A stretch of 64,000 nt of DNA from Caldilineaceae bacterium (GCA_965200385.1 OZ241342.1:2979880-3043879), one strand, 5' to 3'; positions 6,529 to 42,038 are shown, numbered from the stretch's first letter. Notes: generated by a model not told the origin, from the letters alone. A program made the numbers and translations.

Positions 6529-6602
<74 letters not shown>

Positions 6603-11649: not shown

Positions 11650-13002
11650 ATGTCTCAATTCCTTACCCGTCGCCGGTTTCTGCAAGCCACTGGTACCTTC
11701 GCCGCTACCGCTGCCCTGGCAGCCTGTACCATAGCCGCCCCTGCCGCGGAAGAAGGCGCCATGACGGAAGAACCCATTGAGCTGGTGTTTGTCACGACTT
11801 CTTCCAGCGACTCCAGTGCTGCCCTGTACGATCCCATCAAACAGCAATTCCGCGAGGAAAACCCCAACATCGACATCCGCTTCCTGGGTGTCGTGGGCGC
11901 CGGGGGCTGGGGCGGCTATTTTGACAAGCTGAGCGTTATGATAGCCGGGGGCGAAACGGTGGACATGGGCAAGATACCCACCGAAGGCGGACGGCTGGCC
12001 GTGGCCCGCGGTCTGGTTCGGCCCCTGGACGAATTCATCGAAGCCACGCCCGAACTGGACGCGTATTTCGAGGATGTCTCCCCCGAACTGGCTACGGTGT
12101 TCACGTATGGCGGCAAAACCTACGGCCTGCCCTATGATTACAACAACATGATGATCTGGTTCAATGTCAACCGGCTGGCGGAAGAAGGCCTGGAAATGCC
12201 GCCGGAAGACTGGACGTTCAGCGACTTCCGGGAATATGCCTTGGCGCTGACCAAACGGGACGGCGCGAATACCACACATTATGGCTTCAGTTTCTGGTAC
12301 AGTCCGTTCGGTCTTTGTCCGTGGCTCTTCAACAATGGTCTGGCCGGCATGATGGACGGGGACGATCTGTCCATTCCGCTGCAGACCGAACCGGCGTACG
12401 CCGAAGTCGTGCAGCTGCTTTACGACATGATGTATGAAGACGAAACGGTGCCCAAGCCCGATGCCCAAACAACCGGCAATTTCGAAGCGGGCACCCAGGC
12501 CATGATGATGGCTGGCCGCTGGCCCCTGAGCGGTTTTCTGCAGAATGACTTCCGGGACTGGGACGTCCAGTATTGGCCCCAGGGCACCCGGCGCGTGACA
12601 GAAGTCGGCTGTGGTTCCTGGCCCATCTTCAAGGGCTCCCAGCATCCGGAAGCAGCCTGGAAGTTTGAAGTGAAACTGCTGGAGCGCGACTCTATTGCCT
12701 ACTTCGTTTCCACAGGCGCCAACATTCCCTCCCTGCGCAGCGTCGGCTATTCGGAAGATTTCCTGGCGCTGCACGACCGGAGCGGACGGCTCTGGTACGA
12801 GTCGATTGACCGTGAGGACATTCCGGTCATGTCAGTGACGTCTCCTCCGGAATTCAGTGAAATGGAACAAATCAGTGCACGCTACATGTCCCAGATCTTC
12901 GCCAATGAGATGAACATCAGTGAAGCCCTGGGCCTGATCCAGCAGGAACTGACCGACATGGTGGGACGCCGCCCGGCCGAGTGGGCAGCCCAGTTTGCAT
13001 AA
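11650..13002 (+). CDS. ABC transporter extracellular solute-binding lipoprotein (family 1, carbohydrate type)
   Basis: Tat motif TRRRFLQ plus lipobox LAAC, then typical CUT1 binding-protein sequence. Start moved to ATG 11650. Confidence 0.85.
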   Translation: MSQFLTRRRFLQATGTFAATAALAACTIAAPAAEEGAMTEEPIELVFVTTSSSDSSAALYDPIKQQFREENPNIDIRFLGVVGAGGWGGYFDKLSVMIAGGETVDMGKIPTEGGRLAVARGLVRPLDEFIEATPELDAYFEDVSPELATVFTYGGKTYGLPYDYNNMMIWFNVNRLAEEGLEMPPEDWTFSDFREYALALTKRDGANTTHYGFSFWYSPFGLCPWLFNNGLAGMMDGDDLSIPLQTEPAYAEVVQLLYDMMYEDETVPKPDAQTTGNFEAGTQAMMMAGRWPLSGFLQNDFRDWDVQYWPQGTRRVTEVGCGSWPIFKGSQHPEAAWKFEVKLLERDSIAYFVSTGANIPSLRSVGYSEDFLALHDRSGRLWYESIDREDIPVMSVTSPPEFSEMEQISARYMSQIFANEMNISEALGLIQQELTDMVGRRPAEWAAQFA

Positions 13003-13068
13003 ATCGGCCCGTCCGGTCGAGCTGGCCTTCGGCTCCGGAAGCCAGCTCGACTGCAGGACGCTTGCATT

Positions 13069-14001
13069 ATGACAGCTTCCGGCGTTCCGGCTGCCGCTTC
13101 CTCTTCCCAACGCCCAACCCGGTCCCTGCGCCGTCATGAGACGGTAGCGGGCTATCTGTTTACCCTGCCCACGGTGCTGGGCTTCCTGGTATTTGTCCTG
13201 GGTCCCATCCTGGGGGGACTGGCCCTGGGTTTCATGCGCTACGATCTGCTCAACGAACCCAGCTGGATTGGTTTCGACAACTTCGGCAAAATGCTGGCGG
13301 ACGACCGGGTGCTGCAGATCTTCGGGAACACGGTCTACTATGTCGTGGGCATGATTCTGCTGGATCTGGTGTGGGCCCTGGCTTTGGCCATAGCGCTGAA
13401 CAGTTTTATCCCGGCCCTGTTCAAGGTCATCTTCCGTGCCGTATTCTTTTTCCCGATCCTGGTGTCCGGCGCCGTGATATCCATCGTGTGGCTCTACCTG
13501 TTCAACATGGATCTGGGCATTGTTAACTACTACCTGACCCAGATTGGATTGCCCAAGGTCCCCTGGCTCATTGCGTCGGACTGGGTCAAGAACAGCGTGA
13601 TCATCATGACCGTCTGGAACGGCGTGGGCTTCAATATGCTGCTGTTGCTGGCCGGCCTGCAGAACATCCCCCGGGAACTGTACGAAGCCGCGACTATAGA
13701 CGGGGGCGGACGCTGGGCCAATTTCCGGAAAATCACGCTGCCCATGCTGTCTCCCGTCATCTTCTTCATTCTGGTCAAGGGGGCCATCGGCGTGTTTCAG
13801 CTCTTCGATTCGCCCTTCGTCCTGACCAGGGGCGGTCCCGGCGACGCCAGCCGCACGATCCTGATGTACATCTGGGAAAAAGGGTTTCAGGTGCTGGAAT
13901 TCGGGTACGCCGCCGCTTTGGGCCTGATGCTGTTCGCCGTCATCCTGATCGTGACCCTGATTCAGTTCCTGACCAGCGATGCCTGGGTTTTCTATCGCTG
14001 A
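13069..14001 (+). CDS. Carbohydrate ABC transporter permease (MalF/UgpA type)
   Basis: Six predicted TM segments. EAA loop YEAATIDGGGRWANFRKITLPML. Confidence 0.85.
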   Translation: MTASGVPAAASSSQRPTRSLRRHETVAGYLFTLPTVLGFLVFVLGPILGGLALGFMRYDLLNEPSWIGFDNFGKMLADDRVLQIFGNTVYYVVGMILLDLVWALALAIALNSFIPALFKVIFRAVFFFPILVSGAVISIVWLYLFNMDLGIVNYYLTQIGLPKVPWLIASDWVKNSVIIMTVWNGVGFNMLLLLAGLQNIPRELYEAATIDGGGRWANFRKITLPMLSPVIFFILVKGAIGVFQLFDSPFVLTRGGPGDASRTILMYIWEKGFQVLEFGYAAALGLMLFAVILIVTLIQFLTSDAWVFYR

Positions 14002-18056: not shown

Positions 18057-18248
18057 CGGGATACGTCCAGGCAGGGACATACACTCCGGCCCCAAGGATG
18101 ACAAGAGACTCATGCCGCGTGCCGGGATGACACACCACAGCGACTGTAATACGATTTGGGCACTGACAGTCATGGGCTTGTACCCAACAACCAATTCCAA
18201 GATGGAAGATCTGTGGGGATCTATATATATTTGCCGATAGCAACTGTA

Positions 18249-19585
18249 GGGGGTTATATATGTACCCACACCACGCAGTGTAGACAGGAGAGGGCAAGCT
18301 AGAATAGGGTATGAACATAGAAGAGACAATGGTTTGCCGGGGCGTTACCTTACGGGTGCGACCGGGGTCCAAAAACAAGCACGACAAAGATGATGCGGAG
18401 CGGCGGGGCTTGTCGCAAGGTGTGGAACGAAGTATTGGCAATCTGTGAAAAGCGGTGGCAAGACTACAAGGCCGGTAAAGGCGATAAATCATCGGTTTCG
18501 TTCTTCTCTCTATGTAAGTTGTACGTACAAGTCAAGCAGGAATTGCCCTGGTTGGGCGCGTTGCCATCGAACACTGTGCGCTATACCGTAAAGCATCTGG
18601 CAGAAGCCTATAAGCGGTTCTTTGATGGCGCAGGGCGGCCGGTCTGGAAGCGGAAATGCAAGGACACGCCAAGGTTTACTGTGCCCGGTAATAGTAAGAT
18701 TAAGGGCAAGAAGATCTACATCCCCAAGCTTGGGTGGGTGAAGCTGACAGGCAAGAATCCGTACGCCGATTGTAAGCCCAAGCAGGCCACGTTCAAGTAT
18801 GAGGCGGGTAACTGGGTATGTGTCCATCCTGTACGAAGAGCCAGCCCCGCGCCCGGATAGACCTGCCAAGCCTATTAATCCTGTAGGCATCGCTCGGAAC
18901 GTGGGGCAAGTGGCATTAAGTACTGGTGATATGTACGAACTGCCGACGCTATTGGAGCTTGACGCCAAACTGCGCAGGTTGCAAAAGAAGTTAGCTCGTC
19001 AAGAGTTCAAGAGTAACGGGTGGCAATATACCAAACTACGCATACAAAAGGTGTACAGGGAGATACGGAATGTCATAAAGAACTGGTGTCACCAGGCCAG
19101 TCGCACCATTGCTGATATACACGATCTAGTTATCTTTGAAGACCTGAACATTCAGGGTATGACCAAGAGTGCCCGTGGCTCTTTGGAAAACCCCGGCAAG
19201 AATGTGGCTCAGAAAAGAGGATTGAATCGTGCTATCTTGCGCAGCGGGTGGGGGCGACTGGAACGGTATATGGCTTACAAGACTTATACAGAAAAGTATA
19301 GATCCGAAGTACACATCACAGCGTTGTCATAACTGCGGGGTAGTACGTAAAGCTAACCGCAAGTCCCAGTCTGTTTATCACTGCAGTAAATGTGATGTGG
19401 AAAAGAATGCCGACGTGAACGCGGCTTTAAACATACGGGACAAGTGGTTGGATAAGAGTATGGCGTCCGGGGACGGCGCAGCTGCAGGTGGAGATTGCAA
19501 CATTAGTTGGTCTGCGAAGCCTGAAAATGTATATGGAAAAGCATCACAGCCTGCAGGCGTGGTGTGAGTACGTATATAGTCCCCC
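18249..19585 (+). mobile_element. TnpB insertion element, copy A (decayed), with terminal inverted repeats and an 8-bp flanking direct repeat
   Basis: Left end GGGGGTTATATATGTACCCACACC. Right end GGTGTGAGTACGTATATAGTCCCCC. CAACTGTA at 18241-18248 and again at 19585-19592. Collinear nucleotide homology to 40706-42038. Confidence 0.8.
18311..19567 (+). pseudogene. tnpB: tnpB pseudogene (three frameshifts, RuvC-I Asp replaced by Ala)
   Basis: Four ORF pieces in frames 2/0/1/2. Extra bases relative to copy B near 18386-18388, 18814-18816 and 19297. GIARNVG here versus GIDRNVG in copy B. Confidence 0.85.
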
Positions 19586-19819
19586 AACTGTATTGGTCTA
19601 ACACTGAAATAGTGGTTCAAGGCTGGAAAACCCGGTTGCCTTGGGGAGCATGCCACTGCACGCAAGTCGTGCAACGGATTTCGGATAGGGTCGACAATCG
19701 GTGCGGATCGGCCTGTTGACAGCACAAGGCCGACCAGGGTGTGGTATCCAGATCGGCCGTGCCATGTGATGTTGTTGCCCAAGGGCAGGTCCCCTCAGTC
19801 CAAGGGGCAAAGTCCCATA

Positions 19820-21302: not shown

Positions 21303-21386
21303 TAGGAAGGGTGGGATTTGAACCCACACGAGGGTTTGCCTCGGCGGATTTTAAGTCCGCTGCGTCTACCGTTCCGCCACCTTCCC
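21303..21386 (-). tRNA. tRNA-Leu (anticodon TAA)
   Basis: Minus-strand read: GGGAAGG TG GCGG...GGACTTAAAATCC (loop CTTAAAA), long variable arm, T-arm GTGGGTTCAAATCCCAC, acceptor 3' CCTTCCT A. Confidence 0.9.
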
Positions 21387-32614: not shown

Positions 32615-32764
32615 GTGTGTTGCTCCTGAATGTGTGCTGAGCGCGACGCGCACGTTGAGTCCATGCGGCTCGCTTACGCTTGCCTCAGACTGAAATTGAT
32701 ATGGGTTATATACGAGCAGACACCGCTGGCAGAACTGGTGCCGGGAAGCTGTGCATGGTTCCTG

Positions 32765-33300
32765 TCATCCCCCCGGGGTCAGCATGGTATAGGTGAGACG
32801 CTTGCCGATAGCCCCCTGCACCAGGAGCCGCAACTGCTTTTGTGTGTCCAGCGGCCGCACGTTGTGGCGCCCTGTGCATGCATTGATGTAGCGGTGCCGA
32901 CGCTTGAGACTCATGTGGTGGTACACACCCATGTAACCCCGTTTGCGCAGGGCCCAGAACGACTCCAGACCGTTGCTGTGGGCCTGCCCCCGAACACATT
33001 CGCCTACGCTGTGCCGCACCACCGCGCGCGTCCGCTGCACTTGGCGGTAGGCCGTGGCGTCGTCCGTGTACACCAGGGCCTCGCGTGCCGTGCGCACATA
33101 TACGAACTGGCGCAGCATCCGTCCTGGCCACCACCGCGGCGTCTATCCGGTGGGTCGGTCGGTCCTTGACCCCGGCCACGGCCGTAACCAGCGCAGGGGC
33201 TTGTCCCGCACTGCCGGCGCATAGACTCCACGCACACCCCGGAACCTCGTGCCGTCCAGTTTCGGGTTCCAGGCCACCGGCACGAACAGGTCGATGCTGG
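32765..33300 (-). pseudogene. IS1595-family (ISXO2-like) DDE transposase, frameshifted C-terminal two thirds
   Basis: ALVYTDDATAYRQ...VRHSVGECVRGQAHSNGLESFWALRKRGYMGVYHHMSLKRRHRYINACTGRHNVR matches the DDE_Tnp_IS1595 pattern. Upstream parts (IDLFVPVA..., VKDRPTHRIDAAVVARTD) lie in two other frames. Confidence 0.7.
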
Positions 33301-33499
33301 CCGCGAACAATCTGGCGCCGCGCGCATGTCCAGACCGGTGTCCGCCTGCATCAGGATGCCCAGCCGCTGCAGAGTTGCCGGCGGGTTGTGCGCTGTTCTG
33401 CGTTGCCCGCAAGACGCACGGGAATGTCTGTGGCACACCCGGCACGCGCCGGACTATGCGTTCCAAGGCGGGCTCGCGGTCAAGCACAGGAAATATCCG

Positions 33500-33640
33500 A
33501 AGATACACAACCTGCACAAGCTGGCTCCGCTGATGGACGGCTTGATGACCTTGGCCCTGGAACCCGGACGCAACCGGAACGTCACACCTTTGTACGTTTT
33601 CCTGTTCTTGCTCGGTGATACCCTGGTATACCCTTGCTTG
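33500..33640 (-). pseudogene. tnpB: tnpB 5' remnant
   Basis: GVTFRLRPGSRAKVIKPSISGASLCRLC parallels GITLRVRPGSRTKHNKMMRIAGACRKVW of copy B. Nucleotide-level similarity by eye. No start codon retained. Confidence 0.5.
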
Positions 33641-33730
33641 CCGTCTACACCCCATCCCCTGCCTCGCGGGTGAATTCGTATGTAATTCCCTTCGGATAGT
33701 TTGCCAGGTGGGAGAAAGTCCCAACAGCAG

Positions 33731-40625: not shown

Positions 40626-40767
40626 GCCTGTCTGCAAACTCAAAAGAAGCGAGTCGACCCACTGTCTTGAGAACGTAATTGTTTGAACAAGCAAGCAATT
40701 AAGAAGGGGACTATATACGTACCCACACCGCGCAGTGTGGACAGGAGAGGGCAAGCTAGAATAGGGC

Positions 40768-42021
40768 ATGAACATAGAAGAGATTATGGTGCACCGGGGT
40801 ATCACCTTGCGGGTGCGCCCAGGCAGTAGAACCAAGCACAACAAGATGATGCGCATTGCCGGGGCCTGCCGCAAGGTTTGGAATGAGGGACTGGAAATCT
40901 GCGAGAGGCAATATCAAGAATTCAAGGCCGGTAAAGGCGATAAACCTAACGTTACACACTTCGGACTGAACAATCTGTATGTACAAATCAAGCAGGAGTT
41001 ACCCTGGTTGGGTGAGCTGCCGGGCCATACTGTGCGCTACACCATGAAACACTTGTCGGAAGCTTATAAGCGGTTCTTTGATGGCGCAGGGCGGCTGGTC
41101 TGGAAGCGCAAATTCAAGGACGCCCCAGGGTTTACTGTGCCCGGTAATATTAAGATTAAAGGCAAGAAAATCTACATCCCCATGCTTGGGTGGGTGAAGT
41201 TGACAGGCAAGAATCCGTACGCCGGTTGTAAGCCCAAGCAGGCCACATTCAAGTATGAGGCAGGCAACTGGTATGTGTCCATCCTGTATGAAGTGCCCGA
41301 CACACGGCCGATCAGACTGGGTAAACCTGTTAATCCTGTAGGCATTGATCGCAACGTAGGACAGGTTACGCTAAGTACAGGCGATATGTATGAACTGCCA
41401 AAGTTGTTGGAACTAGACGCCAAACTGCGCAGGTTGCAAAAGAAGTTGGCCCGCCAACAGTACAAGAGCAACGGTTGGCAACATACCAAGCTACGTATCC
41501 AGAAGATATACAGGGAGATACGCAATGTCACAAAGGACTGGTGCCACCAGACCAGTCGTACCATCGCTGACATACATGATCGAGTCATCTTTGAGGACCT
41601 GAACATTCAGGGTATGACCAAGAGTGCCCGTGGCTCCAAGGATAAACCCGGTAAGAGTGTAGCTCAGAAAAGAGGCTTGAATCGTGCTATCTTGCGCAGT
41701 GATTGGGGACGGCTGGAACGGTATATGAGTTACAAGACTTATACAGAAAAGATAGATCCCAAGTACACGTCACAAAAGTGTCATAACTGTGGGGTAGTAC
41801 GTAAAGCTAACCGCAAGTCCCAGTCTGTTTACCATTGCAGTAAATGTGATGTTGAAAAGAACGCTGACGTGAATGCGGCTTTAAACATCCGGGACAAATG
41901 GTTAGGTAAGAACATGGCGTCCGGGGACGGCGCATCTGCGGGTGGAGATTGCAACACTAGTTGGTCTGCGAAACCTGAAAATGTATCCGGTGTAGCATTA
42001 CGCCCTGCGGGTGTGGTGTGA
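40768..42021 (+). CDS. tnpB: TnpB RNA-guided endonuclease (IS200/IS605-family OrfB)
   Basis: RuvC-I GIDRNVG, RuvC-II VIFEDLNIQGM, zinc ribbon CHNCG...CSKC, RuvC-III NADVNAALNI. N-terminal RVRPGS...ACRKVWN. Confidence 0.9.
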   Translation: MNIEEIMVHRGITLRVRPGSRTKHNKMMRIAGACRKVWNEGLEICERQYQEFKAGKGDKPNVTHFGLNNLYVQIKQELPWLGELPGHTVRYTMKHLSEAYKRFFDGAGRLVWKRKFKDAPGFTVPGNIKIKGKKIYIPMLGWVKLTGKNPYAGCKPKQATFKYEAGNWYVSILYEVPDTRPIRLGKPVNPVGIDRNVGQVTLSTGDMYELPKLLELDAKLRRLQKKLARQQYKSNGWQHTKLRIQKIYREIRNVTKDWCHQTSRTIADIHDRVIFEDLNIQGMTKSARGSKDKPGKSVAQKRGLNRAILRSDWGRLERYMSYKTYTEKIDPKYTSQKCHNCGVVRKANRKSQSVYHCSKCDVEKNADVNAALNIRDKWLGKNMASGDGASAGGDCNTSWSAKPENVSGVALRPAGVV

Positions 42022-42038
42022 AAACGTATATAGTCCCC
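41860..42038 (+). ncRNA. Predicted omega/right-end RNA scaffold of TnpB (guide would continue into 42039 onward)
   Basis: By analogy with characterised TnpB loci, the RNA overlaps the tnpB 3' end and right end. This stretch is highly conserved with copy A and has a hairpin with compensatory changes (42001-42013 vs 19547-19561). Confidence 0.35.

Follow-up and report, generated by a model that had tools for sequence, protein, structure and literature searches.

Exact 8-bp target duplications flank a decayed TnpB element of a Caldilineaceae bacterium, probably moved in trans by an IS1595-family DDE transposase

Which enzyme moved a TnpB element that lies between two copies of an exact 8-bp repeat? 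TnpB is the ancestor of Cas12, and its role was worked out in IS200/IS605 insertion sequences (ISs), where, by cutting again at the site of scarless excision, it causes the transposon to be copied back. The element considered here, copy A, lies within a 64,000-nucleotide stretch of DNA from a Caldilineaceae bacterium (GCA_965200385.1 OZ241342.1:2979880-3043879), the whole of which is called the window and is numbered from its first letter. A preliminary description had taken the repeat for a probable target-site duplication (TSD) and, together with the inverted termini, had suggested from it mobilisation by a DDE transposase rather than by Y1 peel-and-paste chemistry. We examined if this holds for copy A and its relatives, and which transposase family would be the partner; copy A probably belongs to a group of tnpB-carrying, non-autonomous IS1595-family derivatives that would be moved in trans by an IS1595-family DDE transposase. 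The features of copy A are:

18249-19584, + strand: copy A, a non-autonomous TnpB element of 1,336 bp; homology to copies B-E ends exactly there.
18241-18248, + strand: left copy of the TSD, 8 bp, CAACTGTA; the preceding base, 18240, is G.
19585-19592, + strand: right copy of the TSD, 8 bp, CAACTGTA.
18249-18265, + strand: left terminal inverted repeat (TIR), GGGGGTTATATATGTAC, with an imperfect extension to about 18275.
19568-19584, - strand: right TIR, reading GTACGTATATAGTCCCC on the + strand.
18311-19567, + strand: tnpB pseudogene, four overlapping open reading frames (ORFs) split by three 1-base insertions.

The ends of copy A were set by comparison with copy B, an intact sister element in the window, and three further copies (C, D and E), and read GGGG... 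(18249) and ...GTCCCC (19584). Since homology ends at these two positions, the fifth C, which by one option of the preliminary description belonged to the element and left a repeat of only 7 bp, is part of the flank, and the repeat is 8 bp long and abuts both ends. The TIRs of copy A are 17 nt, or about 27 nt with imperfect matches counted. The chance of an exact 8-mer in this register is about 4^-8 (1.5e-5); CAACTGTA is present four times in the window vs 0.87 expected from shuffles, and the other two sites (32602, 46497, minus strand) are in unrelated sequence.

Copy A had been described as dead, and alignment to copy B bore this out: copy A has one extra base at each of three places and nowhere else (in the runs AAA, 18386-18388, and GGG, 18814-18816, and a T at 19297), and the RuvC-I codon at 18892-18894 is changed from GAT to GCT (GIDRN to GIARN), while the motifs of the RuvC-II Glu (IFEDLN) and the RuvC-III Asp (NADVNAALN) are retained. 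With the Asp-to-Ala change and the three frameshifts the copy lacks an intact TnpB catalytic triad, and it reads as a dead family member whose tnpB was lost by these four changes. When the window was compared with short-read contigs over tens of kb of flanks, most contigs were gap-free and two had a single gap, so assembly indels are rare in the flanking DNA, the interior of copy A being without independent coverage. Both junctions were reproduced in independent short-read contigs (the left in L001, the right in L006 and L008).

The source genome, one 3.79-Mb contig, holds about 50 paralogues found by homologue search, which are 72-87% identical and many of them fragmentary; an IS1595 fragment of the window (listed below) was found exactly on this paralogue-bearing contig, hence the window belongs to that genome. 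The preliminary description had proposed a survey of other copies for duplications, and the outcome was mixed: copy C (L023) has the exact 8-bp duplication CAACCAAT on both sides and copy D (L024) has AATTATAT, whereas copies B and E have no clean repeat. Relatives were collected by an alignment-based scan that took one genome per species, giving 80 loci with TnpBs 35-42% identical to copy B, and source labels of Caldilineaceae, Porisulfidus, Rhodothermales, Dadabacteria, Gammaproteobacteria, Thermodesulfobacteriota and other metagenome-assembled genomes (MAGs); in the genome scan, at least 490 of 575 candidate stretches encoded relatives. The test for flanking repeats was anchored solely on the end motif GGGRNYTAYA and its complement, with a control offset by 10 bases. 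Beside the conserved GGGRNTTATATA ends the repeat was exact (8/8) in 38 of the 80 loci and 7/8 in 11 more; the offset control gave 0. The 8-mers are A/T-rich and differ from insertion to insertion, but the length is constantly 8 bp. Variable 8-mers of constant length, always beside conserved inverted ends, identify a true TSD that is a trait of the whole TnpB lineage, and an 8-bp TSD with inverted ends points to staggered target cleavage by a DDE transposase.

The possibility of a chance repeat or an assembly artefact draws on the two copies without a repeat and on the source being a metagenome assembly. It has a practically negligible probability when the chance per junction (above) is set against a pattern repeated in at least 40 independent loci with a control of 0, and when the junctions of copy A are confirmed in independent contigs.

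The protein was examined from copy B, whose features are:

40706-42038, + strand: copy B, the intact sister element, 84% identical to copy A.
40768-42021, + strand: copy B tnpB, 417 aa, uninterrupted, with Pfam and NCBIfam matches.

The termini of copy B, GGGGACTATATACGT and ACGTATATAGTCCCC, are complementary at 15/15 positions, with an imperfect match onward to about 27 nt. Its protein carries the Pfam domains OrfB_IS605, Cas12f1-like TNB and HTH_OrfB_IS605, matches the NCBIfam TnpB model, and aligns full-length to the ISDra2 TnpB structures 8H1J and 8EXA (E ~2e-19). It thus has the TnpB architecture (WED/REC-RuvC-Zn-finger with a D-E-D triad), and residues D194, E276 and D367 and the four Cys are invariant between copy B and 20 homologues. 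The ratio of nonsynonymous to synonymous substitution rates (dN/dS) among intact tnpB copies is 0.11-0.14 at dS 0.67-1.06; tnpB is held by purifying selection across the intact copies. By its domains, this TnpB is a canonical RuvC-type RNA-guided nuclease and not the transposase. Elements of the family are 1.25-1.6 kb in size, too small for a second gene besides tnpB, so they must be mobilised in trans.

These protein matches are also what favours an ordinary IS200/IS605 (IS1341-type) element moved by Y1 TnpA peel-and-paste, with the flanking repeat coincidental or pre-existing: the protein scores on IS200/IS605 TnpB models, and TnpB-only elements are usually classed there. IS1341-type elements and other ISDra2 derivatives share the protein architecture, the similar size and the single gene, but they have asymmetric hairpin ends and no TSD and are inserted 3' of a fixed target-adjacent motif (TAM), whereas TIRs, an 8-bp TSD and no fixed motif are found here. 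Inverted ends and duplications are both lacking in IS200/IS605 and IS607 elements (PMC13565253); here the two occur in dozens of independent insertions with different 8-mers, namely perfect or near-perfect TIRs of 15-17 nt (to about 27 nt), and variable 8-bp TSDs in copies A, C and D and in the 38 relatives. A conserved 4-5-nt target motif is absent at the left end, where beyond a single G (considered below) none longer was found even within one near-identical subfamily. A Y1 transposase domain was not seen in the called-gene tables, a systematic search for it not having been made. Peel-and-paste mobilisation is accordingly extremely improbable, and the preference for a DDE enzyme in the preliminary description is supported by the variable TSDs with TIRs, the likely family being IS1595.

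The candidate partner is found within the same window as copy A:

32704-33690, - strand: decayed IS1595-family IS, 987 bp, with the same type of ends as the TnpB elements.
32765-33118, - strand: C-terminal part of an IS1595-family transposase, with Pfam and NCBIfam matches.

The region 32765-33118 (-) scored 50.9 bits with Pfam PF12762 DDE_Tnp_IS1595 (cut-off 27), matched NCBIfam NF033547 (IS1595) as well, and is the sole IS1595-family transposase in the window. The ends of the 987-bp element are GGGTTATATACGAGC at 32704 and ...CGTATGTAATTCCC ending at 33690 (reverse complement GGGAATTACATACGAATTC). Exact matches to a 12-nt end motif number six in the 64 kb: four TnpB-element ends, one IS1595 end, and one solo site. 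Further IS1595 genes and remnants were sought by tblastn with the near-complete IS1595 transposase from locus L111; remnants were found near copies D and E of the source organism, one of them preceded by the end GGGGATTACATACGAG, and genes or remnants were also found in a Rhodothermales MAG (OY760427.1; L041, L052/L111) and a gammaproteobacterial MAG (L086). The GGGRNTTATATA ends match those of the window's IS1595 element (32704 and 33690) and of the IS1595 elements in L025, L041 and L086, and, by end alignment, the IS1595 ends of each genome are closer to the co-resident TnpB-element ends than to those of other genomes. Over its first 91 nt, the TnpB element of the Rhodothermales MAG is 93% identical to the IS1595-element end. 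The gammaproteobacterial MAG encodes, at L086:7702-8643, an intact 313-aa IS1595 transposase with a Zn ribbon (DDE_Tnp_IS1595 at 158 bits), and the first 15-16 nt of the left end of this IS are identical to the co-resident TnpB element. At L041:1552-5250, a 3.7-kb segment begins with the left end of an IS1595 element (1552), finishes with the right end of a TnpB element (5250) and is flanked by the exact 8-mer AATACTAT; this mixed pair of ends appears, from its flanks, to have moved as one unit, and it comes nearest to evidence that an IS1595 transposase would bind and join TnpB-element ends.

The L041 unit holds an IS1595 transposase whose frame is broken once, pieces of the TnpB-element left end in inverted orientation and a fragment resembling a methylase, and looks like a compound transposition followed by rearrangement. 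The IS1595 remnant of the window has multiple frame disruptions, and its flanks AATTGATA and TTCGGATA share GATA alone. The solo site in the window, GGGATCTATATATATTTG at 18216-18233 (+), is 33 nt upstream of copy A and agrees with the end motif of the elements at every position; this may represent a solo end or just a target region rich in A/T, and short-read contig L002 breaks exactly there. A 170-bp miniature inverted-repeat transposable element (MITE) in a Rhodothermales MAG (L073:1185-1354) shares the inverted ends of the TnpB elements and has a flanking repeat of 7/8, and in Rhodothermales TnpB elements another sequence resembling the left end lies internally, about 176 bp inward from the true one. 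Passenger genes directly follow the IS1595 transposase stop at L086:8644-9114, an N6/N4 DNA methyltransferase by Pfam, and at L111:5558-6058, an ORF without a Pfam match in which an NPPF-type motif is similar by eye.

Two other kinds of partner have to be weighed against these matches. In locus L031 the space from the left end to tnpB holds a helix-turn-helix (HTH) ORF and a DDE_3 ORF (NCBIfam IS630), the 2,521-bp unit as a whole being flanked by exact TTATATAA; and Altae-Tran et al. 2023 (PMC10691335) report IS630-linked TnpBs with symmetrical ends. The partner could then be an IS630-family DDE transposase, as in the published 'DDE-6' TnpB branch, and the elements IS630-TnpB composite derivatives. 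The IS630 part of L031 (2780-3803), however, has its own inverted repeats, AGCACGYGGCC, at a CTAG site with a TA duplication, and sits inside the left inverted repeat; its removal restores a 24-nt match between the TnpB-element ends, which indicates a nested secondary insertion. The CTAG/TA pattern recurs in ordinary IS630 relatives (L108, L110), the insertion is present in one of the 80 loci, and IS630 duplications are 2-bp TA, not 8 bp (PMC13565253). IS630 and HTH genes inside the same ends as tnpB, with a TA duplication, are thus not what was found, and an IS630 partner is very unlikely. A metagenome scan and homologue search with the L031 DDE_3 ORF returned ordinary CTAG/TA IS630 elements only. 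The nested IS630 of L031 could be mistaken for a genuine IS630-TnpB composite.

Alternatively, some other DDE (or other) transposase moves the elements, and their likeness to IS1595 ends is convergent or arose by mutual insertion. The loci examined in the source organism yielded no intact IS1595 transposase, the end similarity there is partial, and an ISAzo13-family transposase gene begins 35 bp beyond copy D. That gene, however, is outside the copy D duplication and without matching ends; the other DDE genes within related elements (L046) belong to nested insertions that have made duplications of their own; and the matches between IS1595 and TnpB-element ends track genome by genome in three unrelated organisms, one of them with the 91-nt stretch and the compound element of mixed ends. 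We consider this alternative unlikely, though less so than an IS630 partner. Two large transposase genes within related elements were set aside, the 484-aa DDE gene of L046, a nested IS with its own short duplication, and the 421-aa transposase gene of L097, presumed nested. The ISAzo13-family gene (L024:11297-12487, 214.7 bits) is followed by an IS1595 remnant at 12827-13115, in a local cluster of IS debris.

An IS1595 assignment agrees with what is published of the family, in which a TSD of 8 bp and an initial GG are usual (PMC8101967). ISApl4, an IS1595-family element, has GGGGCTGTACTAGA ends (GGGG...) and A/T-rich 8-bp repeats, and a circular intermediate has been reported for it (PMC12561309); passenger genes are carried by some of the family (Siguier et al. 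2009, cited in PMC8101967 and PMC12561309). The TnpB elements have 8-bp, usually A/T-rich TSDs, and GG-starting TIRs in common with transposase-encoding members. The likeness to IS1595 ISs extends to cargo, since IS1595 elements here carry DNA methyltransferase genes; they are unlike in that the only gene of a TnpB element is tnpB, with no gene for a DDE_Tnp_IS1595 transposase, which in most groups of the family has a Zn ribbon at its N terminus and is found here in separate co-resident elements. Having no transposase gene of its own, the TnpB element is an IS1595-family derivative and not a full member. The end consensus of the ISNwi1 subgroup in the ISfinder table, ggnnatTAT, would fit GGGAATTAT.

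We propose that these elements consist of tnpB and a presumed guide RNA between IS1595-family TIRs, with no transposase encoded, and that an IS1595-family DDE transposase, acting in trans, would recognise the GGGRNTTATATA... ends and join them to cuts staggered by 8 bp in an A/T-rich target, repair of the stagger giving the 8-bp duplication. The chemistry may be either cut-and-paste or copy-out/paste-in. A candidate origin for the transposase behind the movement of copies A and B is the family of the 987-bp IS1595 element. TnpB would most likely aid retention or spread of the element by means of a guide that reads out of the right end, made up of the duplication and the right flank. The TnpB lineage very probably spreads by borrowing an IS1595-type transposase instead of its usual partner.

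Several points weigh against IS1595-family mobilisation. A clean duplication is absent in two of five same-genome copies: the flanks of copy B are ATTAAGAA and TACGCTTC, with no duplication, and those of copy E (L025) are AATTACAG and AAATTGTG. The uninterrupted target, which the preliminary description had suggested finding in related genomes or metagenomes, was not recovered among the roughly 30 contigs of related metagenome samples that exact look-ups of the genes flanking copies A and B yielded; all junction-reaching contigs either had the insertion or were broken inside the repeat, and the empty site of copy A (...GCCGATAGCAACTGTATTGGTCTAAC...) is a reconstruction. An intact IS1595 transposase with these exact ends was not found in the source organism, where the window and the retrieved loci, rather than the whole genome, gave three remnants. 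The ends of TnpB elements and IS1595 remnants of that organism agree at about 13 of 17 terminal bases and in a short CAC(A/C)C block, with no long identical stretch. The presumed guide RNA (omega-RNA) was not matched to an Rfam family, and its covariation is weak.

The last such point is the target itself. A target logo was made from 42 reconstructed empty sites (L028-L096, window copy A, L023 and L024). The base just 5' of the duplication was G in 38 of the 42 sites, and the mirrored C after the duplication was present in only 9. A symmetric DDE transpososome should give a palindromic preference, so a G on the left only is not what it predicts. Bases 1-3 of the duplication were mostly A (27-29 of 42), and the last three were A or T without strong bias. 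A Shine-Dalgarno or start-codon context was considered as a cause of the G; co-oriented ORFs start at 14 of 53 sites (6 of 53 in the opposite orientation), and the G persists in 35 of 39 sites without a co-oriented ORF, so a ribosome-binding-site context is no explanation. In the source organism the duplications pair by their first bases, G|CAAC in copies A and C and G|AATTA in copies D and E (window 18241-18248; L023:9931-9938; L024:9913-9920; L025:9931-9938), which may represent chance or a local target preference.

The right end of the element is presumably the 3' end of the omega-RNA scaffold. If the omega-RNA extends outward past the right end, as it does for other TnpB elements, the right TSD copy would be the first eight nt of the guide. 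The last (3') 290 nt are the best-conserved DNA between copies A and B (87%), and a single long-range helix alternates between C-G (15 sequences) and G-C (12), which could go back to one event; pairing predicted between GTCCCC at the right-end tip and a GGGGAC upstream of it occurred in 4 of 55 elements vs 2 in the control and is not general. If the guide starts at the base following the right end and is directed at the unoccupied allele, the G is at the position of the last TAM base. It is possible, though doubtful, that the left-only G is the TAM and the guide is the 8-bp duplication plus the right flank, in which case the nuclease would cut the unoccupied allele (G, 8-mer and flank). If this were true, an element mobilised by a DDE transposase would gain RNA-guided homing or a retention drive, and either the IS1595 transposase or selection would confine surviving insertions to TAM-adjacent sites in one orientation.

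Some observations concern the hosts and the neighbourhood. One Rhodothermales genome has more than 25 near-identical TnpB copies. Several MAG names (Porisulfidus, Dadabacteria, Caldilineaceae bins) suggest, as names, marine-sponge symbionts; such an origin, if true, would imply horizontal spread within one habitat. Two tRNA genes, 6529-6602 (+) and 21303-21386 (-), are the sole Rfam matches in the window at the gathering threshold, the second being about 1.7 kb from copy A, past an ammonium transporter gene.

TnpBs linked to DDE transposases have been published before. Altae-Tran et al. 2023 PNAS (PMC10691335) describe six DDE-associated TnpB branches (DDE-1 to DDE-6) with inverted-repeat ends, and solo TnpBs with the ends of transposase-carrying relatives that were inferred to be mobilised in trans; target-site duplications go unmentioned in the main text of that paper. 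The transposase families named for the DDE-TnpB branches are IS630, ISL2 and IS1031 (review PMC13565253). The branches are like the present lineage in being prokaryotic TnpBs outside IS200/IS605/IS607, with inverted ends and solo TnpBs moved in trans; they are unlike it in that the ends and neighbouring remnants here point to IS1595, and no copy encodes its own transposase. The present lineage may overlap one of those branches. A literature search that took in the main text of Altae-Tran et al. 2023 found no published report of a TnpB-IS1595 link.

A eukaryotic parallel is the SfAV Fanzor1 type (Yoon et al. 2023, PMC10711439), which is bounded by TIRs, makes a TSD, has Fanzor as its sole gene, and depends on a transposase in trans; its guide RNA reads from the right end across the TSD, and eukaryotic Fanzors ride TIR/TSD transposons, non-autonomous ones included (PMC10711439). 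The likeness is that a TnpB-family nuclease is the sole gene of a TIR/TSD element dependent on a transposase in trans; the Fanzor elements differ in their eukaryotic or viral hosts, other superfamilies and derived proteins, whereas a bacterial canonical TnpB with IS1595 (Merlin-related) ends is found here. MITEs and mobile insertion cassettes are likewise transposase-less, bounded by TIRs and dependent on a resident IS, but the present elements have as cargo an RNA-guided nuclease, which is held by purifying selection and may be of use to its own element.

Prokaryotic TnpB-DDE links are rare and their benefit is unclear (2026 review PMC13565253). The present lineage is a large natural test case, with many phyla, consistent IS1595-type ends and 8-bp duplications, and a tnpB under strong purifying selection, and it supplies candidate ends and a transposase, e.g., the intact L086 IS1595 gene, with which experiments could be made. 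The orientation-specific target bias could reveal how a guide and TAM are fitted to an element whose insertion duplicates the target. The eukaryotic superfamily Merlin has its bacterial relative in IS1595, and through this kinship the case may inform how Fanzor-type nucleases came to ride DDE transposons.

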